This document shows, piece by piece, positions 38,528-50,002 of a DNA stretch of 64,000 nt; position 1 is the first letter of the stretch, and every line of letters starts with the position of its first letter. This DNA comes from Chloroflexota bacterium (GTDB lineage: Bacteria > Chloroflexota > UBA11872). The notes beneath the pieces are model-generated. The model was given only the letters and a program-made list of their open reading frames with translations. It was not told the DNA's origin and ran no database searches. Location of the stretch: NCBI GenBank assembly GCA_022824865.1, contig JAJDZD010000053.1:1462-65461 (forward strand), in the 5' to 3' direction. The translations under genes were made by a program, and so were the position numbers.

Positions 38528-38866
38528 TTAGGGGCGACCGGCGACAAGCCCATGCCCGCCAGCCGGCCTCTTGTAGATCACGATCCCAACGCTCTCAATG
38601 TGTCGCTGAAGCGGCGCGTAGGTGATCTTCTCGTAGGCCTGCAGATCGCACTCCTGCGGGATTGGAAGATCGTCGAGGTCCAGGGCGAGACGTCCCAAGC
38701 GATGGTCGTCTGCAATACCTCGCGTGGCGAGGTCGATGTCGGACCGAGCATTGGCCGCCCCGGTGGCTCGTGAGCCGAAAAGCACGACTTCCGTTAGTTC
38801 CGGATACGCAACAAACACTCGCGTCAATGCAGCCAGCGTTCGGTCCGACAGTTCCGGGGCGTTCAC
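38528..38866 (-). CDS. minimal nucleotidyltransferase (MNT) of a HEPN-MNT module
   Basis: LFGSRATG.....SDIDL. Confidence 0.9.
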   Translation of the reverse strand: MNAPELSDRTLAALTRVFVAYPELTEVVLFGSRATGAANARSDIDLATRGIADDHRLGRLALDLDDLPIPQECDLQAYEKITYAPLQRHIESVGIVIYKRPAGGHGLVAGRP

Positions 38867-39279
38867 GACCCGAGCGCCTCTTTGGCCAGCCGGTCGTACA
38901 AGTCGCCCAAAATCGAAAGGTAGCGGCGTCGCACATTGCCGGCGACGGCCTCGAACCTGGCAGCGTCGTAGGTGTGAGCCATCAGATTTCGATCGGTCAG
39001 CATGTCAATCCACGCATCACCGTCCTCGATGAGCTTGGCTCTGAACGCTGCCCGGATCACATGGCGCGGGCTGACGGTGTCGAGCATCAAACCGTCGTAC
39101 TCCATCCGGTCCTTGAGCGTGTTCCAGGCCAACTCGAACGTGTACTCAAAGCGCTGGATCACTCCTTCACGCTCCAACTGGCTCAAGTCCTTGACTTCCA
39201 CCTCCAGCGCCTCCCGCAAGAGGGCGTAAGCCCGCGAGAAGTTCCTAAACCGGTACTTCCAGCGAACTTCCTCGCTCAC
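38863..39279 (-). CDS. HEPN-like nucleotidyltransferase substrate-binding protein (HI0074 family)
   Basis: GVIQRFEYTFELAW, RNLMAHTY (RxxxxH). Confidence 0.9.
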   Translation of the reverse strand: MSEEVRWKYRFRNFSRAYALLREALEVEVKDLSQLEREGVIQRFEYTFELAWNTLKDRMEYDGLMLDTVSPRHVIRAAFRAKLIEDGDAWIDMLTDRNLMAHTYDAARFEAVAGNVRRRYLSILGDLYDRLAKEALGS

Positions 39280-40421
39280 CGCACCGCCACCCACGCCCGC
39301 TCCCGCTCCGACTCCCGTGCCGCGTCTACCGCCCGCGCCACCGCCAGCCCGTCGTGAAAGCTCGCCAGTTGGGTGGGCGTACCGGCGGCATGCGCCCGCA
39401 GACCCGGAATCACAATCTCCCGGAACATCGCCGTATTCTGCGCCCGCGGCGACTCGTGGACCCGTACCGGCACGTCGATCACCTCGGTGTCGACCCCGCG
39501 CACCAGGCTCACCTGGCCGGCCCGCCGGTTGCCCCCCGAGTAGCTCACAAACGCCGACGCCTTGGACCCGTGCACCTGCACGTCGGGTGTCGGCCCGGGC
39601 CGCGTAAACGTGGTTTGGCCCGCGGTGAATGTGAACAGCGCCCCCGAGGCCATCTCACCGTGAATCGTCCCAAAGTCGCTCGCGGTCACCTGTGCCATTG
39701 GGGTTCCTGGCGCCGCCCCCTGCGGGTTCTCGGCCGACCAGCGGTTGGCGTCGACTCGCGAAATGTCACCCATATCCGGCCGCTCCGGCACCACGATAGG
39801 CAGGTGGCCCAACACCGCGGTGATCTCGCTGCCGGTCAGGTAGCACGCCAGGTCCAGCAGGTGCACACCCAGCAGGCCGATCGACCCGGCCGGGCACTCC
39901 TCCTCGGTCATCCACCACTGCACCGGCTCGTGCAGCGCGCGCGGCTGCCAGATGCGGCCGAACATCGCCTGCACCTCGCCGATCTCGCCCTCATCGATCA
40001 GCCGGCGGACGGTCTGCATCGGTTCCGCGAACCGCATGTAGTGCCCCAGGCCGTGGCCCAGCCCCGTGCGCTCCGCCGCCGCCACCATCTCGGCGCACTG
40101 CTCCGCCGTATTGGCCAGCGGCTTCTCGCACAGCACGTGCTTGCCCGACTCCAGCGCGGCAACGGCCACCGGGTGGTGCATCGCGTTGCTCGTCACAATC
40201 GCTACCACGTCCACGTCGTCCCGCGCCACCAACTCGCGCCAATCCGTATGGGTGTCGGGATTCCCATAGGCCGCCGCGGTCTCCGCCAGCGGCCCGGGCC
40301 TGCGGGCGGCTATCGCACGCAGCTCCAGGTCGGGCAGGTCAATGGCCGGGTTCAGATAGGTCGGCGCAAAAAGCCCGGTCGCCCCAACCACGCCCATTCG
40401 CAAGGCGGTTCCTTCATTCAT
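39276..40421 (-). CDS. Gfo/Idh/MocA oxidoreductase
   Basis: GVVGATG, GKHVLCEKP, VHLLD. Confidence 0.9.
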   Translation of the reverse strand: MNEGTALRMGVVGATGLFAPTYLNPAIDLPDLELRAIAARRPGPLAETAAAYGNPDTHTDWRELVARDDVDVVAIVTSNAMHHPVAVAALESGKHVLCEKPLANTAEQCAEMVAAAERTGLGHGLGHYMRFAEPMQTVRRLIDEGEIGEVQAMFGRIWQPRALHEPVQWWMTEEECPAGSIGLLGVHLLDLACYLTGSEITAVLGHLPIVVPERPDMGDISRVDANRWSAENPQGAAPGTPMAQVTASDFGTIHGEMASGALFTFTAGQTTFTRPGPTPDVQVHGSKASAFVSYSGGNRRAGQVSLVRGVDTEVIDVPVRVHESPRAQNTAMFREIVIPGLRAHAAGTPTQLASFHDGLAVARAVDAARESERERAWVAVR

Positions 40422-40433
40422 GTTGATGCCACC

Positions 40434-41045
40434 TCAAAGCGGGTCTGGAACGTCCGGTGCGGGCCGGCCGCGCAGTTCACGCGAAACGCTGACGAGATAG
40501 TAAAGGCCTGAAGCAAGCGTCATGACCAACGCGAACATCACCAGAGCCCAGGTCAGCGGCACCCGGTCCCAGATCAGCGCGGCCAGACCGATGTATTGCC
40601 ACATCATTTTCATCTTGCCCAACTGCCCCGCGCTTACCGTAACGCCCTGCGCCCCGGCGTAGGCCCGCATTCCCATCACGAAGATCTCGCGTCCGATGAA
40701 TCCAACCGCAATCCACCCCGGAATCCAGCCCAGCTCCACCATCGTGATCACCAGTGCGGCCACCACCAGCTTGTCGCCCACCAGGTCGAAGAAGATCCCC
40801 AGCTGCGAGCCGGACCCATAGCGACGCGCGATCAGCCCGTCCAGCACATCCGTGATGCCCGCCACAATGAACAGGCAGGCGGCCGCCTGGTTCGAGGCTT
40901 GGCCGTCCCACAGCAGCAGCCCGATCACCAGCGGGATCACCAGCACTCGGAACCCGGTCAACAGGTTGGGCAGACTGGCAATCCACCCGGTTGCATCCCG
41001 GTCCGCGGACCGCGGGCCGATACCGTTCGCTTGCGGGGACGTCAT
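40434..41045 (-). CDS. pgsA: CDP-diacylglycerol--glycerol-3-phosphate 3-phosphatidyltransferase
   Basis: LPNLLTGFR, TDVLDGLIARR....SQLG.FFD..GDK, RE, GKMKM; follows rodZ-like gene. Confidence 0.85.
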   Translation of the reverse strand: MTSPQANGIGPRSADRDATGWIASLPNLLTGFRVLVIPLVIGLLLWDGQASNQAAACLFIVAGITDVLDGLIARRYGSGSQLGIFFDLVGDKLVVAALVITMVELGWIPGWIAVGFIGREIFVMGMRAYAGAQGVTVSAGQLGKMKMMWQYIGLAALIWDRVPLTWALVMFALVMTLASGLYYLVSVSRELRGRPAPDVPDPL

Positions 41046-41049
41046 TGGC

Positions 41050-41724
41050 TCAGCCACCGGCGTCAACCTGCCAGGTCCGCTGATACGATCCGCCGGGCGG
41101 ACCCAGCAATCCCATCGCGGCGCCGTCGATTCGCACCTCGATCGCGTCGGGCGCTTCGGCCCGCACCACGATTTCCCGCTGCGGCGACCACGTCTGGCTC
41201 GACCCGGCCGAGATCTGTCCATCAAAGACCGACCGGCCGTCCACCACCACCGCAATCTCGGTAGGGCGCACGGCTACCAGTTCCAGCACGCTGCCTGGCC
41301 GCAGCCCGATGCCGGTCGGCGTCGCGACGGGCGTCGACGACCCGGAAGCCGCCGGTAGGGGCAGTCCGCCGGATCGGACCACGAGCAGCACCGCCACCAC
41401 GATCACGGCCACTCCGGCAAAGACCCCGGCTATCAGGCGCCCCTGGCGACGCCGCAGCGCCCGGTTGGGCGCGCTGGCGGCAAGGCGTCGCGTGTTCAGG
41501 GCCGTGGCGTAGGCGTTCAACACGGGCTCTTCCGGCACCGCCAGCGCCCGGGTATACACGCGGATCAGCCCCCGCGTGAACGGCTCCGCCGGCAACACAT
41601 CCAGGTTGTCGGTTTCCAGCGCAATCAGATTGTGGCGTGGAATCCTCGTGGCGCTCGAAACCGCCTCAAGGCTCATCCCGGCCTGGTCCCGCGCCGCGCG
41701 CAGCATTTCACCCATCGTCGCCAT
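41050..41724 (-). CDS. RodZ-like protein (HTH_25 + TM + DUF4115-like)
   Basis: GEMLRAAR...SLE.VS..TRI....L.ALE.....LP...F.RG.IR.Y; TM; C-terminal beta domain. Confidence 0.85.
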   Translation of the reverse strand: MATMGEMLRAARDQAGMSLEAVSSATRIPRHNLIALETDNLDVLPAEPFTRGLIRVYTRALAVPEEPVLNAYATALNTRRLAASAPNRALRRRQGRLIAGVFAGVAVIVVAVLLVVRSGGLPLPAASGSSTPVATPTGIGLRPGSVLELVAVRPTEIAVVVDGRSVFDGQISAGSSQTWSPQREIVVRAEAPDAIEVRIDGAAMGLLGPPGGSYQRTWQVDAGG

Positions 41725-41765: not shown

Positions 41766-43271
41766 TCAGGTTCGCTGAATGCTGAAGTCCGGCCGCGGCT
41801 TCAGGATGATCCCAAGTCCCGTCAGCCGTTCGTTGGCGTTAGCGATGTCCACGAACCGGTTAAGGAAGTCGTCCATGCCCGACCGCAACTCCTCGTTCAC
41901 CGCTGCGCTATTGCCCTCGTGCTCGGTGACCAGCGAGTCGCGCCACGAAGCCAGCAACTGCGTCAGGCCCTCCTGCAGGATGGCGGCTACGAACTGATCC
42001 GCGAACTCGGGCACCCCCAGCCGGATATACGCGGTCAGGTCGGTCACGTCGTACTGGAACTGCACCACCAGATCTTCAGGCTCCGCCTCCGTCGGAAATA
42101 TCAGCGTCACCGGCGCCGCTCGATCCGTCAGGTTGATCAGCCGTCGATCCGTCACCGGTTGCGGCCAGCTCCAGAAGAGTCCCGGGCCCTGCACGACGCT
42201 GAGCGTGCCCACGCCGGATTCCTCCGGCTGGTCGAATCCCTTACCCAGCGACAACACGCCGGCGCTGCCTGGAAACACCACCGCCTCGTTCTGAAGCAGG
42301 ATCAGCGCGTCGTCGGCGCTCAACCGAAAGACCCCGGCGGCCAGGAACGTCACGACCGCCGCCAGGGCGCCCAGCAGCAGAATCGCCGGAACGGTCACGA
42401 ACGTGGGCACGCGCGACCGTGAGGCCGGGTCGTAAGGCGACGTAATCGTGGCAATGTGCGCCGAGTTCCGCCGCGCGTATAGCCCTGGAATCAGGCGCCG
42501 CGGCGGGCGGCCGGCCCGGCGAAATTGGGCGGCCATGTCGGCTGCGAAGGCCTGCACCGCGTCCTGGTTGTAGTGGGCCGCCAATTGCTTCAGCCGGTCG
42601 AACCTCGTCGCCAGGCGCAGCGCCCGCTGGCCGTCGACCCGTGCCCGTCCGCCCATCAGGCTCCCGATGTCTGCCAGCAGCCCATCGGCGGCGGCCAGGA
42701 ACGGCCCTGCGCCCTCGCGCACCTGCAGGTCGGCGACCCGCAGCGCGCCCTCGGCGCCGCGAGCCAGCGGGTGTGCCGCAACCCGTCCGCGGGCGCGGCG
42801 GATCAACCAACCGGACGGCAGCAGGGAGATGAGGACGGCCAGCGGCAGTCCGCCCAGGGAACCGCCGGCGCTGCCCAGGAAGTCGGCAACACTCGCTCCC
42901 ACGGCCGGGACATTGCGAATCGGCACCGACATCAGCCCCAGCAGCGCCGCGACCAGGAACGGCAATCCCACCGCCGCGATCACGTGCACCCAGAGCCGCG
43001 CCCGGACATGGCGCCCTGAACGTCGCAGTTCCCGCACGGCCTTGGCTTCGATCCGATCCACGGCTGAGGTGTCGTCGGGACGCGCATCGACCCATAGGGT
43101 GCGAGCCGGAATCAGCACTCGCCCCGCCACTTGCCTGAGCCGGTGCCGGTCGTGCGCGATCAGCACCGAACCGTGCGGGCCCGCGGGAATCGGCACGTAG
43201 TCCAGCGGAATCGCCGCGGGATCGTCCCGTTCGGCCGTCATGCTCGCCATGGACGACGGTTCGGTCCGCAT
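41766..43271 (-). CDS. hypothetical membrane protein with C-terminal SPFH/HflK-like domain
   Basis: Three TM segments; AAGVFRLSADD...GPGLFWSWPQPV...VQFQYDVTD resembles band-7/HflK N-terminus. Confidence 0.7.
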   Translation of the reverse strand: MRTEPSSMASMTAERDDPAAIPLDYVPIPAGPHGSVLIAHDRHRLRQVAGRVLIPARTLWVDARPDDTSAVDRIEAKAVRELRRSGRHVRARLWVHVIAAVGLPFLVAALLGLMSVPIRNVPAVGASVADFLGSAGGSLGGLPLAVLISLLPSGWLIRRARGRVAAHPLARGAEGALRVADLQVREGAGPFLAAADGLLADIGSLMGGRARVDGQRALRLATRFDRLKQLAAHYNQDAVQAFAADMAAQFRRAGRPPRRLIPGLYARRNSAHIATITSPYDPASRSRVPTFVTVPAILLLGALAAVVTFLAAGVFRLSADDALILLQNEAVVFPGSAGVLSLGKGFDQPEESGVGTLSVVQGPGLFWSWPQPVTDRRLINLTDRAAPVTLIFPTEAEPEDLVVQFQYDVTDLTAYIRLGVPEFADQFVAAILQEGLTQLLASWRDSLVTEHEGNSAAVNEELRSGMDDFLNRFVDIANANERLTGLGIILKPRPDFSIQRT

Positions 43272-44180
43272 CTACAGCGTCTCCGGCGCCACGGCGGCCG
43301 GCCCGGCGATGAAGACGGCGCCGGCCGCTGCGGCCAGGGCCGCTGCGCGTTGGCTCGCCATCCGACCCACCGCCACGGCCGAAGCGCCAATCGCCCCGGT
43401 CCCGTGCGCCGCCCACGAAGCCAGCGTGCGGTCGGGCGGCTGCCCCGGGGTGGTCGCCAGCACCCCTGGCGCAAGCGAAAGAACGCCAGCCATGTGCAGG
43501 TCGTCGTTTTGCGGCGTCAGCAGGTTGATGCCGCGCCGGCGAATCTCATCCGCGGTGCGCTGCCCTTCGTCCTCGCCGATTCGCGCGCGCCGGTCGTCAT
43601 GCCACCGTGCCTCGGACTGCTGGCCGTGCGCATGGAGGATCAAGGCGAGTTCCTGGGCCTCAATTGCCGCGCCCCCGTCGCGCAGGTCCAGCACAAACGA
43701 CGGCTCAAAGGCGTTCAGCGATGCGCGCAAGGCGGCCCACGCCCGGGGCCGCAGCGGCGAGGCCAGCAACCGCAGGGCGGCGGGCAGGCCGAACGCCGGC
43801 TGCTCCGGCTGGGGAATGTCCCCAAACGCAGCGGGCTCCACCAGGTACAGCAGCAGCGCAACACGCGAGAGCAGCGACTGTCGGTCGCTGGCGGGCGTCC
43901 CGAACGCGCGCGCCACGGCCCGTCCGGCCGCCAGCACTGGCATCGTGAGTGTGTTGGGCGCCGCGTCGATCGCGATTCGGACCTCGGCCGCGGAGTCGCC
44001 GGCTGTCAACTCCAACAGGCGACCTTCCTGCAGGCCCCCGATGGGCCCTTCGTAGATCGTGCGCTGGGCATAGACGCCGGCCAGCTTCGAGGTCTCGTCC
44101 CGCCAGTCCGTCGGGCGCAGCAACCGGCGATAGCGCGACTCGTCAATCGGAATGTCAACGCGCACGCCCTCGGCAATCAC
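43272..44180 (-). CDS. hypothetical protein, possible inactive M14 carboxypeptidase-fold
   Basis: IGGLQEGR, LLSRVALLLYLVEPAAF, FEPSFVLDLRD echo M14 motifs without the His/Glu ligands; abuts the next gene. Confidence 0.6.
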   Translation of the reverse strand: MIAEGVRVDIPIDESRYRRLLRPTDWRDETSKLAGVYAQRTIYEGPIGGLQEGRLLELTAGDSAAEVRIAIDAAPNTLTMPVLAAGRAVARAFGTPASDRQSLLSRVALLLYLVEPAAFGDIPQPEQPAFGLPAALRLLASPLRPRAWAALRASLNAFEPSFVLDLRDGGAAIEAQELALILHAHGQQSEARWHDDRRARIGEDEGQRTADEIRRRGINLLTPQNDDLHMAGVLSLAPGVLATTPGQPPDRTLASWAAHGTGAIGASAVAVGRMASQRAAALAAAAGAVFIAGPAAVAPETL

Positions 44181-44201
44181 GGCTCAACGCCCCCGCTATT
44201 T

Positions 44202-44331
44202 GAGACCTTTGCATAACCCTTCTTCCTCGGAGCCGCAGCCTCTTGCCTCTCCGGGGGGAGAGGCCGGCGCCGTCTTCGGCGGCGGGTGAGGGGTCTTCCG
44301 CGCAACCAACCTCGGGTTACGCAAAGGTCTC
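44202..44331. mobile_element. MITE-like element copy 3
   Basis: GAGACCTTTGCATAACCC...GGGTTACGCAAAGGTCTC; flanks TATTT/TACTT. Confidence 0.8.
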
Positions 44332-44340
44332 TACTTGGGA

Positions 44341-45042
44341 TCATCCCGGTCCCCCGGTTGCCGCGGCCGGGGCTGGCAGCGCCAGCCGCCACGGGTTGTG
44401 CAGGGTCTCGTCCGCGACCCAGAAGCCGATGTGCGGCGGCAGTGTGGACGGGTGCATGCCCCCCGCCAGGGCCTCGTATACCTCGGCAACCTCGTCCAGC
44501 CCGTCCGCCCGCGCCAGCACCGCGCCCAGGGCGTAGGCCGCCGTGTCGTCGTCGACCTCCCGCATCGCGCGCTCGATACGCCCAAGTCCGGCGTGAGCGT
44601 CCGAGCTGACCAGCGGCGACTGCGCCGGCGCGGCCGGCGACTGGGCCACCGGCGTAGCCAGGCCAAGCAGCCATCGCAACCAGCGCCGGCCGGCCAGCAA
44701 CCAGGCGCCCGCCAGCGCCGGAACCCAGTGCCCTCCGGAGGCGATGATGAGCGCCAGCCCCAACGCCACTTCCATCCAGATCATCATGCGTCCGCGGCGT
44801 CGCGACCCATCTCGCGGCGCGGCGTCTCCGGCCATGCGCGCATAGTCCACGGCCATCGTGGCGGCCCGCGCGGCCAGGGGCGCCGAAAACTGCTGGCTTT
44901 GCGGCTGGATCAGCGCAATGCGCCAGCCCCAGAACTGCGGGCTCCGGGATGGCGCCGCCTGCAGAATCGCGGCCGTCGAACGATCGGCTCGCAGCACATA
45001 GCCGTCACGAATCGGTACCGCCCAGCAGGCTAGGTTCATCAT
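44341..45042 (-). CDS. hypothetical membrane protein
   Basis: ATGA overlap with upstream gene; central hydrophobic hairpin. Confidence 0.7.
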   Translation of the reverse strand: MMNLACWAVPIRDGYVLRADRSTAAILQAAPSRSPQFWGWRIALIQPQSQQFSAPLAARAATMAVDYARMAGDAAPRDGSRRRGRMMIWMEVALGLALIIASGGHWVPALAGAWLLAGRRWLRWLLGLATPVAQSPAAPAQSPLVSSDAHAGLGRIERAMREVDDDTAAYALGAVLARADGLDEVAEVYEALAGGMHPSTLPPHIGFWVADETLHNPWRLALPAPAAATGGPG

Positions 45043-45794
45043 TGCGAGCGAGCTTCCAGGTACGTCAGCGGATGAGGCGCCGCCCATTGGCCGCGCGCTC
45101 GGGCCCGCAGCCGTGCCAGTCGGCCTTGTGGTGTGGAGACCTTGGGCGCGGCCGCCAGGGCTCGATAGAACCGTGCCGCCGCCGGCCAGCGCACACGGAC
45201 TCGCGCCGCGCGCTCCAGGCGCATCAGGTCGCGCGGCTCGTTGGGCTGGTCGATAAACCGCCAGAGATCGCGCAGCCGCGCCAGCGAGTCCCCGTCGCGC
45301 CCAATGGCCGTTGTCGGCAGCAATTCGCCAACCTCCAGCGTTGCCCGTGCGCGTGCGCCGACCCGCCGCCGCGCCACCGCGCGCCAGGCCAAAAACAGGC
45401 CCGGAACGAATCCCAGCGGTACTGCCCAGGCCACCACCGCATGCACCGGCTCACGGTTCAGGAATAGAAACGCCAGCAGGACACCGACCACGCCCAGTTC
45501 AAGCAACCCCGTCAGCAGCGCCAGCAGCCACCGCCGGCCCTCCCCAGCCGTACGCACCGCGTGCGTAAACAGATCCGCCTCGACCCGCGCCCGGATTACC
45601 GCCAGTTCCCCCATCGAGAGCGGCAACCGGCTATACAGCGCGATCTGAAACGGTCCGGCCACGGCGTCCAACTGCCCGTAGTCGGCGTCGATCAGCACCA
45701 CGCTCCCCGTGTCCGTGGGAACCACGAATGCGTCAATCAGTTGGGCGTTTGGATCGGAGTCCTGCACGGCGATAGAAGGCTCCAGCGGCGCCAC
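45039..45794 (-). CDS. hypothetical two-TM membrane protein (start uncertain)
   Basis: Divergent from mnmG; two hydrophobic helices; coupled to 44341-45042. Confidence 0.7.
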
Positions 45795-45891: not shown

Positions 45892-47877
45892 ATGCGTTTG
45901 CGACGACCCCGCACTCCCGCCGCCAGCTTCGACGTTTTGATCGTGGGTGCCGGCCACGCCGGTTGCGAGGCGGCCCTGGCCGCCGCGCGCATGGGCTGCC
46001 GCACCGCCCTGCTGAGCACCAGCCTCGGCACCGTCGCCCAGATGCCCTGCAACCCCTCCATCGGCGGCCCGGCCAAGGGCAACCTCGTCCGCGAGATTGA
46101 CGCCCTCGGCGGCGAGATGGGCCGCAATACCGACCGCACCCAGATCCAGATCCGCGAGCTCAACACCAGCAAGGGCCCGGCCGTCCGCGCCCTCCGTGCC
46201 CAGTGCGACAAGCATGCCTACGGTCGGCTCATGCGGCGAGTGCTGGAGAGACAGCCCAACCTGACGCTCCTCGAAGCCCACGTAGCGGGCCTCATCTGGG
46301 ATGCCGAACCCTCGGAAGGAGCGCCCGCTTGGCGCGTACGCGGCGTCCGAACGAGTGAGGGCGAGGAAATCCGCGCCCGTGCCACCGTCGTCACCACCGG
46401 GACATTCCTGCAGGGCCGGATCATCCTGGGCGACTCCGAATCCCCGGGCGGACGCCGCGGCGAACCGCCCGCCACGGCCCTATCCGAAGACCTGCGTCGG
46501 GCCGGCCTGGAACTCGGCCGCCTCAAGACCGGCACCCCGCCGCGTCTTGCCGCCGCCAGCATCGACTACAGCCGCACCCGCGTGCAGCACGGCAGCGAGC
46601 AGCCCCTCTGGTTCAGCTTCGATCCGCCGCCCCGCTCCGAGTGGCACGAGGCCGCGCCGGACCCCGTCTATCCCCACGTCCCGCCCCCCGGCTGGCGCAC
46701 CCAGATGGCCTGCTACCAGGTCCACACCACGCCGCAAACCCACGATCTCATCCGCGACAACCTGCACCGCGCGCCCATGTACAACGGTTCGATCACCGCC
46801 TCCGGCCCGCGCTACTGCCCCTCCATCGAAGACAAGATCGTCCGATTCGCGCACAAGGACTCCCACTCCCTCTTCCTCGAACCCGAGGGGTTCCGGACCC
46901 ATGAGGTCTACGTCCAGGGCGCCAACACCAGCCTGCCCGCCGAAGTGCAGCTCGCCATGATTCGCACTGTTCCTGGCCTGGAATCTGCAGAGATGCTTCG
47001 TCCCGGCTACGCCGTGGAGTACGACTTCGTCCACCCCCGCCAGCTTCGGCGCTCCCTCGAAGTCCGCAACGCCCGCGGCCTCTTTCTGGCCGGCCAGGTC
47101 AACGGCACCACCGGCTACGAAGAAGCCGCCGCCCAGGGCCTCATGGCCGGCATCAACGCCGCGCGCCAGTCACGCGGCGAGCCTGCCGTCGAGCTCGACC
47201 GTGCCCAGGCCTACATCGGCGTGATGATCGACGACCTCGTCACCAGTGAGCTCACCGAGCCCTACCGCCTCCACACCTCGCGTGCCGAGTACCGTCTGCT
47301 CCTCCGCCACGACAGCGCCGACCGCCGCCTCACCGAACTTGGACACGAAATCGGCCTCGCCTCGGATCGCCGTCTCGCCCGCCTCCGCCGCCAGCGCGAC
47401 CGGTCCGACGCCACTCTGGCCTGGCTGGAGCGCCTCCGCGTGCCGGCCACGTCTGCGGTCAACGGACGCCTCCGCGACCTAGAACTGGCCCCGCTCCGCC
47501 AGACCACCCGCGGCCTCGAACTCCTGGCCCGCACCGGCATCACCTGCGACCTCATCGCCGAACTCGCGGGCGATCCCCCGCCTCCACCCGAGGCCGCCGC
47601 CCACGTCGAATTTGAGATCAAGTACGCCGGCTACATCCGCCAGCAGGAAGCCCAGGTCCGCCGTGCCGCCGCGATGGAAGATCACCGGATTCCGTCCGAC
47701 CTGGCCTACCTCGACCTCCGCGCCTTGCGCACCGAGGCCCGCCACCGCCTCGAACGCTTCCGTCCCGCCACCGTTGGGCAGGCCGCCCGCCTCGAAGGCG
47801 TCACCCCATCCGACATCGCCGGCCTCCTCGTCTACCTCAAGCGCCACACCGAAACGGCTGACGCCGAGCGGCGCTAG
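45892..47877 (+). CDS. mnmG: tRNA uridine-5-carboxymethylaminomethyl(34) synthesis enzyme MnmG (GidA)
   Basis: [54 protein letters not shown]. Confidence 0.97.
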
Positions 47878-47949: not shown

Positions 47950-49752
47950 CTACGGCATACGCCGCCTGATCCGCCGGATCACCGTGCGATGCACGCCCAG
48001 CGCGCCAAGCCCCAGCGCGCCAAGGACTGCCGCGATTGGGGCAACGATGATCCCTACGACAATGGCCGCGTTGGCCGCCCACTGCCCGATCCGCGTCAAG
48101 ACCTCAACCGAATTGTCAACCGTCTCGCCGGGATCCCAGTCGTCGCTCTCACTCACGACGAACTCTCCGTCTTCGCCCTTGGGAATCGCGGTGATAAACG
48201 TCACGCGTCGGTTATCCACGCGCGCGCGGTCGCTCTCCGTGGACTCGATGGACGTTGCGAGCCATTGTCGTCCGGTATCGGCATCGAGCCGGACGACGTA
48301 GCTCACGCTGCCGCTGGCGCCGGGCGAAAGCTCGGGAAACTCCCAAACGATCTCATTCCGGTCGGTATCAAATCGCCCGCCCCGATTCGCTCGCATGAAC
48401 GTCATGCCGGTGGGAAGCCGCTCGACCAGGCGCACGTCCCGCGCGTCCCCGTTACCTCGATTCGAGTAATTCAGCACCATCGTCAACTCTTGATCGATTT
48501 CAATCTCGAGGTCGGGGTCCTGCTGGAGGCTCAGGTCCACGAAGAACGGCAAGGTGACGCCGGCCTGGTCCTGTTCCGTGTTGCGAACATCGCTGTCCGT
48601 GCTCGCCTCGGCGCTCAGTCGCATCGCCTGGCCGTCACCCTCAAGGCGAACGCGCGTGCGAAGTTCGAGCGACTGACCCGGCGCCATTCGGTCGATCGTC
48701 CACACCACGCTATGCGTGGATTGGTCGTACTGCCCTGGCTTCGTCGCGTTCTGGAACACCAAACCCGGATCTAGCTGATCGCGCACGGTCACGTTCCGGA
48801 GTTCCACCGTCCCGTCATTGATCACGCTGATCGGAAACTCAACCGAGTCGTGCATGGAGTACTGGTCGGGCGCCCGCCGTTCCACCCGAAGGTCCGGGAT
48901 CGGATGCAGATTGACCGTGACGGTCGACAGCGCCGCCTGGTCCGCCAGCACGTTCAGCTGACCCTGGAACGTCTCGATCTGTTCACGCACCTGGGCAACT
49001 TCGCGCTGCACGTCCAGCGTGTCCTTCACGGTCCTGGACGTCGCCATGATTTCCAGCAACTGCTGCTCGGTGGCCTGCGCGTTTCGCATCCGGGACTCGA
49101 TGTCCGTAAACGCAGCCGTAACGTCCTGCCCGGTCACGTCCTCAGCCACCACCTCGCGCCCGTGAGCGCGCACACGTTCGACTGTCTCGTCAAAGCGCTC
49201 GGCCGGCACCCGCAACGTGATCGAACTGATCCGGTACGGCTCGTTGCCTCCGATTTTGGTGTGCGACACGAAGGCCCCGGGAATCGAAGCCACGATGCCG
49301 CGGATCGCCTTCACGCTGGTCGGCACGTCAGCCACCACGATGCCGATGCTGGCGGTGCGAATGACCTTGCGCGCGGAGTTCGGAACCTGCGTCTCAGCAG
49401 TCAGCAGCGAGCCGGTGGATGTCTGGCTCGGGGCGCCGTCCGCCGGCGCCGCCTCCTGGACGACCGAGCCCGTCTCCCCCGGATCCGTGGTCGCGACGGC
49501 GTCGAATTGGACCGCCTGCGTCACCACCTTTTCGACCTGTACCGACCTCTGAGCGGCCATTGGGGCGGCAGCGGCAGCTGGCATGGCAGCCGGCCGGGCC
49601 ACCATCTTCTCAACGGCTGGTGGCTGTGCAGCCTGAGGGGGCTCGGCCGACGAACTTTCTCCGCATGACGCCACCAGCATCGCCGCCAACGGTATTGCCA
49701 ATATCAGCGATCGTCTCGGTCCTCGCATCGCTAACCTCCTCGCCAGATACAT
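47950..49752 (-). CDS. lipoprotein with DUF4349 domain, two DUF11-like domains and C-terminal TM
   Basis: LVASC lipobox; RKVIRTA..TLRVPA..QDVT..IETFQGQL; V.V.D.L.PG..F repeats. Confidence 0.8.
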   Translation of the reverse strand: MYLARRLAMRGPRRSLILAIPLAAMLVASCGESSSAEPPQAAQPPAVEKMVARPAAMPAAAAAPMAAQRSVQVEKVVTQAVQFDAVATTDPGETGSVVQEAAPADGAPSQTSTGSLLTAETQVPNSARKVIRTASIGIVVADVPTSVKAIRGIVASIPGAFVSHTKIGGNEPYRISSITLRVPAERFDETVERVRAHGREVVAEDVTGQDVTAAFTDIESRMRNAQATEQQLLEIMATSRTVKDTLDVQREVAQVREQIETFQGQLNVLADQAALSTVTVNLHPIPDLRVERRAPDQYSMHDSVEFPISVINDGTVELRNVTVRDQLDPGLVFQNATKPGQYDQSTHSVVWTIDRMAPGQSLELRTRVRLEGDGQAMRLSAEASTDSDVRNTEQDQAGVTLPFFVDLSLQQDPDLEIEIDQELTMVLNYSNRGNGDARDVRLVERLPTGMTFMRANRGGRFDTDRNEIVWEFPELSPGASGSVSYVVRLDADTGRQWLATSIESTESDRARVDNRRVTFITAIPKGEDGEFVVSESDDWDPGETVDNSVEVLTRIGQWAANAAIVVGIIVAPIAAVLGALGLGALGVHRTVIRRIRRRMP

Positions 49753-50002
49753 GCTTCGGCGTCGCCCGACAGGTGCTGAGACTCCCTTACGTCGATGCCG
49801 GTGCATTGCACACCGTGCGCCATCGACGATGACCTCAACTTAGGAGACGCAACCCTGTCGGCACAACGTCACCTCGGCTCTGTCAGTACGGCTCCACAGA
49901 TAACTACGCTAACCCGACGAGATTCGTTCCCTGCGTTCTGGGCTTCGTCTCTCACGACTGCACCGCGCGGCCGGGCCGAGCCTCCCGACCGCTGGCCTAC
50001 GC

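Follow-up and report, generated by a model that had tools for sequence, protein, structure and literature searches.

In the genome of an uncultured Chloroflexota bacterium (GTDB lineage Bacteria; Chloroflexota; UBA11872), four hypothetical genes lie between mnmG and the rodZ–pgsA pair, and the question they raise is what kind of system they encode and whether it belongs with RodZ. The locus was studied in a stretch of 64,000 nt, hereafter the window, corresponding to positions 1,462 to 65,461 of contig JAJDZD010000053.1 (GenBank assembly GCA_022824865.1). An initial annotation, made from the letters alone, had proposed that the four genes, here called A, B, C and D, encode a membrane complex of three distant paralogs with paired transmembrane (TM) segments, one of them fused to an SPFH domain, together with a pseudo-peptidase. 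The features it listed are all present in the sequence, and its interpretation is supported in part. Our answer is tentative, and as a whole we give it somewhat less than an even chance: A-B-C-D would be a real, vertically inherited operon, confined to one Chloroflexota class and transcribed into rodZ and, in its own family, also into pgsA, and its products would form a RodZ-linked envelope scaffold. From the sequence comparisons described below, the system can be classed as a putative SPFH scaffold of new architecture with three unnamed partner families.

SPFH proteins (stomatin, prohibitin and flotillin, along with HflK/C) are universal membrane organisers. In D, the product of the largest gene, the initial annotation had seen a third TM segment and an HflK/band-7-like part, and both were found: TM3 spans residues 286–320 and is followed directly by SPFH1 and SPFH2. 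When an AF2 model of D (pLDDT 81.4) was searched with Foldseek, it matched prohibitin, HflK/C, stomatin, flotillin, erlin and QmcA with E-values from 1e-6 to about 1e-2, and the entries 8rrh, 9cz2 and 7vhq matched at 1e-6 to 1e-5. VIA-align over residues 295–501 gave Z-scores of 9.9–11.4, the best being 7vhp_G (Z 11.4, root-mean-square deviation 3.6, 166 residues aligned). A comparison of the C-terminal half of D with four Pfam-verified Band_7 proteins by hhalign gave 98.8% (E 1.2e-16, 146 columns); these four proteins had been chosen from the tail of the D-profile search, and two of them carry HflK_N. Fold and profile together place D in the SPFH superfamily, as a distant member.

D stops at residue 501, which is the end of the aligned SPFH2, whereas the matched structures run on for another 20–260 residues into coiled coils: 7vhp_G has 299 residues (1–216 aligned), QmcA 276 (1–164) and flotillin 419 (1–157). 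D thus has no counterpart of the C-terminal coiled-coil region (CC1/CC2) of the SPFH cage formers HflK/C, prohibitin, stomatin, flotillin and erlin. To our knowledge, the recently solved SPFH cages all rely on a C-terminal coiled coil. No NCBIfam family matched D, nor did HflK_N in Pfam. On account of its score below the curated cut-off and its missing coiled coil, D cannot be counted among the HflK/C, prohibitin, stomatin or flotillin proteins. It resembles HflK/HflC and prohibitin in several respects. As in these proteins, a TM anchor stands directly before SPFH1 and SPFH2 (VIA-align Z 10.8–11.4, Foldseek E 1e-6 to 1e-5, hhalign 98.8%), the N-terminus is predicted to lie inside and the SPFH part outside, and the concept of paralogs joining in a hetero-assembly is common to both. 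The differences are that D ends before CC1/CC2 and stays below the Pfam Band_7 and NCBIfam HflK/C cut-offs, that its anchor comes after an N-terminal module of 285 residues with two additional TM segments, and that the paralogy here lies in the N-terminal module and not in the SPFH part, which only one of the three paralogs has.

This likeness raises the alternative that D, with its SPFH domain facing outward, and A and B surround or gate a membrane protease such as FtsH in the manner of HflK/C, the link to rodZ being one of co-regulation only. The best structure matches include HflK/C–FtsH complexes (9cz2, 7vhq, 7vhp and 7wi3), the tail hits of the D profile are proteins with HflK_N and Band_7, and the predicted topology, with the N-terminus inside and SPFH outside, would agree with that of HflK/C. 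Against this, the cage-forming region of HflK/C is missing from D; four canonical Band_7 proteins are present in the genome in any case; and the conserved cluster has no protease gene, C being devoid of conserved catalytic residues. We regard a role as protease regulator as unlikely.

The N-terminal half of D begins with a beta/alpha domain (residues 21–61), followed by TM1 (about 91–119), TM2 (about 132–157, with an invariant GGLPL) and a cytoplasmic helical bundle (173–277). The same layout recurs in A and B. In A, a small N-terminal beta/alpha domain is followed, by hydropathy, by a two-TM hairpin at residues 88–138 with Arg-rich flanks on both sides, and then by a cytoplasmic helical tail with conserved W178, E194, W203 and Y210. 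In B, an N-terminal beta motif (P10, G14) leads to a short, Gly-rich hairpin of hydrophobic residues (84–111) with a conserved GGHW-P turn, and then to a helical tail with H150, L153 and Y189. The invariant residues differ from one paralog to the next, which fits non-redundant subunits. The positive-inside rule and TM parity predict that the N-terminal domains and the helical tails of A, B and D are cytoplasmic and that the SPFH domain of D faces outward.

The relationship between the three proteins is distant. With small order-level alignments, hhalign gave only weak links (A–B 20%, A–D 60%, B–D 0.9%). The alignments were enriched with orthologs from distant families, to 21–26 sequences per family, and compared in local mode. 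A–B then scored 53.7 (93%, E 3.5e-7) over 180 colinear columns, and A–D(1–285) scored 44.8 (83%, E 9.4e-6) over 196 colinear columns. In 30 block shuffles the highest scores were 34.3 and 28.1, respectively; a reversed-template control that retained the hydrophobic segments stayed at or below 1% across families, and six cross-comparisons with C or with the C-terminal half of D reached at most 0.5%. The N-terminal and helical-tail motifs described in the initial annotation were present, and hhalign brought three elements into register: the xxYxxPxxxG strand-turn of the N-terminal part, the hairpin of hydrophobic residues and the tail helix with A-x-x-Y-x-x-L. From these profiles we accept that A, B and the N-terminal half of D, with A as the bridging member, derive from one ancestral module, in which a small beta/alpha domain in the cytoplasm, a hairpin in the membrane and a helical tail, again cytoplasmic, follow one another.

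TM2 of D is strongly conserved (G136, G140, G141, L142, P143, L144 and P152), and so is the membrane hairpin of B (residues 95–116), with a G-G-H-W-x-P turn and W114. The conserved membrane motifs of the two proteins hint at a specific intramembrane site and not a plain anchor. In the A orthologs, the extreme C-terminus tends to Arg-x-x (RSQ, RSR, RTS, RAT, RAW and the like). Either a functional tail or a mere constraint, imposed by B's ribosome-binding site and start, which overlap this end, could account for the pattern.

Several candidate relationships were not borne out. In a protein atlas, the best values were 0.87 for A (the two-TM families DUF4231 and DUF3318) and 0.75 for D(15–290); all were below 0.9 and count as leads, none of them confirmed. 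The central helical bundle of D (residues 188–282) resembled CheA-P1-like four-helix bundles with Z-scores of at most 8.3, which is below the meaningful level for helical bundles. Sequence-profile searches of the PDB with D and C returned chance helical hits only, with no peptidase for C. The whole-model structure search barely probed the N-terminal domain of D (residues 21–61).

C is a soluble protein with no N-terminal signal peptide, and its Ala-rich C-terminal helix belongs to the fold. The AF2 model (pLDDT 85.5, pTM 0.89) was matched by VIA-align to 3ieh_A (Z 17.5, root-mean-square deviation 3.3, 232 residues aligned) and 4a37_A (Z 17.2), to carboxypeptidases B, T and D (Z 15–17) and to the cell-shape carboxypeptidase Csd4 of Helicobacter pylori (Z 14.1), while other Zn-exopeptidase clans gave Z 12–14. 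Foldseek found 4b6z_D with E 3.7e-7. The M14 match spans the whole length of the protein, and C has in common with the M14 metallocarboxypeptidases (the bacterial cytosolic-carboxypeptidase-like 4a37 and 4b6z, Shewanella 3ieh and H. pylori Csd4) the entire fold with colinear secondary structure.

What C does not share with these enzymes is the HxxE...H motif, apparently also the conserved catalytic Glu, a Pfam match and a signal peptide; in addition, it is encoded in a membrane-protein operon and its family is class-restricted. In alignments of 19–21 sequences, no invariant or near-invariant His or Glu was found at which the zinc ligands HxxE...H could be placed. The conserved residues were instead G61, P160, G217/G239, W26, R100, D168, A263, R278 and A279. 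The strand expected to carry the general base (residues 264–271, matched by secondary-structure order) had no conserved acidic residue. Neither Peptidase_M14 (PF00246) nor any other Pfam model matched any of the 19 C members at E-values up to 1. The family comprises 27 proteins, all unnamed and confined to the class. Because there is no conserved His and no signal peptide, C is probably a cytoplasmic pseudo-peptidase of the M14 carboxypeptidase fold, as its model suggests, which supports the pseudo-peptidase reading of the initial annotation.

No named system could be assigned to the locus, in agreement with the initial annotation. Pfam, NCBIfam and PADLOC returned nothing for A, B or C, and the operon was not described in the titles and abstracts that literature searches listed for SPFH proteins with RodZ, for RodZ in Chloroflexi and for prokaryotic SPFH gene neighborhoods. 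The nearest operon analogy is with the SPFH–NfeD operons (stomatin/QmcA–YbbJ and flotillin–YuaF), which are described, along with a subgroup without coiled coil (SPFH11b), in published work (PMC2636767). There, and presumably here, an SPFH gene is co-transcribed with small multi-TM partners bearing a small soluble beta domain. In NfeD, however, the TM segments come first and a C-terminal OB-fold follows, whereas the beta domain of A and B precedes the TM segments; the NfeD model of Pfam matched none of the 19 sequences of A and none of the 19 of B. The partners here are, moreover, paralogs of D's own N-terminal half, and the peptidase-fold protein is of the M14 type and not the ClpP type.

The genes themselves are well supported. 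The initial annotation described four co-oriented genes, tightly spaced apart from a miniature inverted-repeat transposable element (MITE), divergent from mnmG and leading into a rodZ-like gene and pgsA, and the open reading frames (ORFs) and junctions agree with this description. The TGA of A shares the letters ATGA (45042–45039) with the ATG of B, and the TAG of C directly abuts the ATG of D with a spacer of 0. The likely start of mnmG is an ATG at 45892, leaving about 97 nt to the start of A. The G+C content of the DNA is 62–74%, and because of this composition there are numerous long ORFs in other frames and on the opposite strand. The frames of A, B, C and D are those kept as protein in relatives, with reading frames and lengths maintained from 94% down to about 26% identity.

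Conservation of the cluster, which the initial annotation had left to be checked, was borne out. D was present in 40 of the 41 nearest-relative genomes (two families of one order), the single miss being a genome that is 93% complete. Across the class, the D profile matched 66 of 98 genomes, distributed by family as f1 37/37, f2 17/19, f3 1/1, f4 3/9, f5 7/14 and f6 0/17. An even sample of the phylum (251 genomes, with 6 candidates scored per genome) yielded 21 D matches, all in the organism's own order (f1 and f2), and none in sampled genomes outside the class; f3–f5 were not represented among the matches shown in the family tally of that sample. HMMER, run exhaustively with the D profile against 1.84 billion cluster representatives, returned only 52 proteins at E ≤ 0.001. 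The relatives whose source names were read are "Chloroflexi bacterium" metagenome-assembled genomes. In one of the relatives (G031), two near-identical D copies were seen on contigs C18 and C6; one lies where its contig ends, and the pair may stem from a duplication in the assembly and not from a true second copy.

The arrangement of mnmG divergent from A-B-C-D-rodZ was kept in the order-level loci and also in the distant families f3, f4 and f5 (L031–L034 and L037), where gene starts are approximate. In f3–f5 the position of C is held by an ORF of 341–412 residues that is too diverged for the order-level C profile and can be aligned with C when included. In 38 of the 39 genomes with downstream DNA, rodZ lies directly 3' of D, and one more locus stops at a contig end. 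Further downstream, pgsA is found 3' of rodZ in f1 and is not adjacent in f2. Among 19 loci, A and B overlap by 4 nt in nine and B and C by 4 nt in ten; the C/D gap is 0 in six, and in 15 it is at most 10 nt or the genes overlap.

Short contigs from four metatranscriptome libraries of one study, with 90–99% identity, contain segments of rodZ and of all four genes A to D, and three junctions are spanned by them: A/B, C/D and, without the MITE, B/C. Parts of the stretch had no such contig. They give a weak hint of transcription, as DNA carry-over is possible and strand, ends, a single transcript and a ranking of the genes by depth could not be read from them. A promoter scan found no sigma-70-like site, and terminator-like sites only within coding sequence; the scan is uninformative.

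This pattern of inheritance also bears on whether the locus could be an anti-phage defence or conflict system. Two-TM small membrane proteins and SPFH-type proteins do occur in some defence systems. PADLOC, however, assigned none of the four proteins to any family, the genes are single-copy with fixed synteny next to mnmG and rodZ through the whole class, which argues for vertical inheritance, and there is no mobile-island signature besides the strain-specific MITE. A defence function is very improbable.

The genomic neighbor that is kept most consistently is rodZ. The rodZ gene of the window is the sole match above the HTH_25 cut-off in the source genome, which also has two MreB genes. In Bacillus subtilis, flotillin-type SPFH proteins are reported to affect MreB movement and peptidoglycan synthesis (PMC7360373), and the flotillins FloA and FloT offer a conceptual precedent for an SPFH influence on the MreB/RodZ elongation machinery. 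Flotillins nevertheless differ from D: they lie on the cytoplasmic side and possess long coiled coils, their genes are not known to accompany rodZ, and the homology is limited to the SPFH domain.

Gene order and translational coupling suggest to us, tentatively, the RodZ-linked envelope scaffold named at the outset. According to this proposal, the three paralogs would pack via their hairpins and cytoplasmic modules into a hetero-oligomer, and this packing would substitute for the oligomerising role of the missing coiled coil. D would expose its SPFH domain on the membrane's outer face, beside the outer domain of RodZ, and the pseudo-peptidase C would dock on the inner, cytoplasmic face as an adaptor. 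The set would be produced in a fixed ratio with RodZ, and the assembly would organise a membrane zone, or the partner proteins, of the MreB/RodZ cell-wall elongation machinery.

Several results weigh against this proposal, as a whole or in its parts. The association of A, B, C, D and RodZ is one that we infer from gene order and coupling. In G042, a complete genome of the same family (L040, G042:C1:1799282–1814745), A-B-C-D is followed directly by pgsA, there is no adjacent rodZ, and the best HTH_25 match is a weak one (25.8 bits) elsewhere in the genome; for the module to persist, adjacency to rodZ is thus not required. Conversely, family f6, the one with no D in 17 genomes, has rodZ–pgsA with unrelated upstream genes and two MreB genes and no A-D, so that RodZ/MreB function needs no A-D. 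The number of MreB genes does not follow the presence of the module, there being two copies with and without it. In genus g19 (L035, L036 and L038), D-rodZ is preceded by a different ORF of 456–460 residues that has no relation to A, B or C, and neither A nor B was detected; a gene a few kb upstream has termini that we take, by eye, to look like those of a flagellin.

The assignments of D and of the paralogs have weak points as well. Pfam Band_7 (PF01145) scored D at 11.7 bits against a gathering cut-off of 23.6 (E 0.28), and any match at all was seen in only four of 16 D family members (best E 0.043); the band-7 match expected from the initial annotation was thus found by Foldseek, VIA-align and hhalign, and not by Pfam. 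Among the three proposed paralogs, A–B and A–D(N) stood above the controls, whereas B–D(N) directly was unsupported (17%, score 30.7 over 33 columns, within the control range), and because of this the third link rests on transitivity through A.

For C, the weak point is a possible metal or ligand site. Most sequences have an acidic residue at position 74, and D168 is conserved; D74 and D168 would presumably occupy the positions of the two zinc histidines, going by secondary-structure order and the topology of carboxypeptidase A. A divergent metal or ligand site may then lie there. C might accordingly be an active, divergent hydrolase or a ligand binder, for example one that acts on or senses peptidoglycan peptide stems; murein peptidases of the MpaA-like and Csd4-like kinds have the same M14 fold (Z 14.1 for Csd4), and both acidic positions appear to lie near the expected metal site. 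The lack of any conserved His, and of a conserved Glu at the presumed general-base strand, speaks against this, as does the failure of Peptidase_M14 to match a single member even at E 1. We consider an active or ligand-binding C rather improbable.

Another alternative that takes the downstream context into account is a membrane-lipid or envelope-stress module, in which the SPFH protein, together with its paralogs, would act without RodZ, either organising or sensing domains of anionic phospholipid or damage to the membrane. The position of pgsA, after rodZ in f1 and next to D in G042, would fit such a role, and so would the conserved Gly/Pro/His/Trp motifs in TM2 of D and the hairpin of B, which suggest a specific intramembrane site. 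Membrane surveillance in Bacillus subtilis is reported to involve SPFH proteins (PMC8581546). The cluster, however, contains no stress regulator, and it is rodZ that is nearly always adjacent to D (38 of 39 genomes), pgsA not being adjacent in f2. A lipid or stress module seems fairly unlikely to us.

It is also conceivable that the genes share a transcript and nothing else, the proteins acting singly or in pairs without forming a four-protein complex. The set varies: A and B are missing from g19, rodZ from its usual place in G042, and the C of distant families is strongly diverged. Against mere co-transcription stand the overlapping or abutting stop and start codons retained across families, the gene order fixed through the class, and the invariant residues specific to each paralog, as in non-redundant subunits. 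Structure prediction of a complex of A and B with C as partner gave a score of 0.00 against a mark of 0.32, which speaks neither for nor against binding. We judge co-transcription of otherwise independent proteins to be improbable.

If the RodZ-linked scaffold is taken one step further, A, B and the N-terminal half of D might be a new oligomerisation platform, embedded in the membrane, that replaces the coiled-coil cage of classical SPFH proteins and yields an SPFH assembly of a kind not seen before, with parts on both membrane faces. C would retain its pocket for peptide C-termini as a receptor, either for the stem peptide of the peptidoglycan precursor or for the conserved C-terminal tail of a partner, and would so couple precursor supply to the RodZ/MreB machinery. 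This combination is speculative, and taken together we think it quite improbable.

The significance of the locus lies in an SPFH domain without a coiled coil that is both fused to and co-encoded with an unrelated two-TM module, present in two further copies, and accompanied by a dead-looking carboxypeptidase. If the proteins assemble, they would represent a different way to build an SPFH scaffold and an uncommon case in which genome organisation links SPFH proteins to the elongation machinery. The locus adds three protein families without a Pfam model, from a class of uncultured marine and sponge-associated Chloroflexota, and it offers a clean case of a probable pseudo-enzyme taken into a membrane operon. 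Its practical reach is limited, the hosts being uncultured and the function a proposal.

The MITE between B and C, recognised as such in the initial annotation, lies in a gap of 160 nt and had 48 matches at E ≤ 0.001 in the 3.5 Mb source genome. It has the marks of such an element, being short and non-coding, with terminal inverted repeats, many copies and a presence/absence polymorphism. The RNA of the gap folds at −79.5 kcal/mol (z −4.6), and none of 200 shuffles was equally stable. The element was not present in relatives, in which the B/C gap is 25 nt (L030) or the genes overlap by 4 nt as noted above, and RNA-library contigs of close relatives join position 44195 straight to 44337 or 44341 without it. 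It is therefore a recent, strain-level insertion within the operon. Its hairpin, at an otherwise coupled junction, might alter the coupling of B and C in this strain. Two more partial copies of the MITE are found on the same contig.

The coordinates of the genes and of the MITE are given in Table 1.

Table 1. Genes and repeat element at the A-B-C-D locus, in window positions.
Feature	Position	Strand	Remarks
Gene A	45039–45794	minus	251 aa; GTG start at 45794, in line with ortholog starts
Gene B	44341–45042	minus	233 aa
MITE-like dispersed repeat	44196–44340		Core 44202–44331 (130 bp) between 18-bp terminal inverted repeats
Gene C	43272–44180	minus	302 aa
Gene D	41766–43271	minus	501 aa; N-half 42417–43271 (aa 1–285), C-half 41766–42416 (aa 286–501)
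rodZ	41050–41724	minus	224 aa; HTH_25 E 1.9e-17, one TM (aa 93–127), RodZ_C E 3.3e-7
pgsA (CDP-diacylglycerol--glycerol-3-phosphate 3-phosphatidyltransferase)	40434–41045	minus	TIGR00560 120.9 bits, cut-off 109.1
mnmG (gidA)	45892–47877	plus	Divergent from A; GIDA E 2e-155

Two genes downstream of pgsA lie outside the conserved cluster: one for a Gfo/Idh/MocA oxidoreductase (39276–40421, minus strand) and one for a nucleotidyltransferase substrate-binding protein (NTase_sub_bind) of 143 residues (38863–39294, minus strand). Downstream of mnmG and on the opposite strand, positions 47950–49806 (minus strand) encode a protein of 618 residues with DUF4349, two DUF11 repeats and a C-terminal hydrophobic segment.

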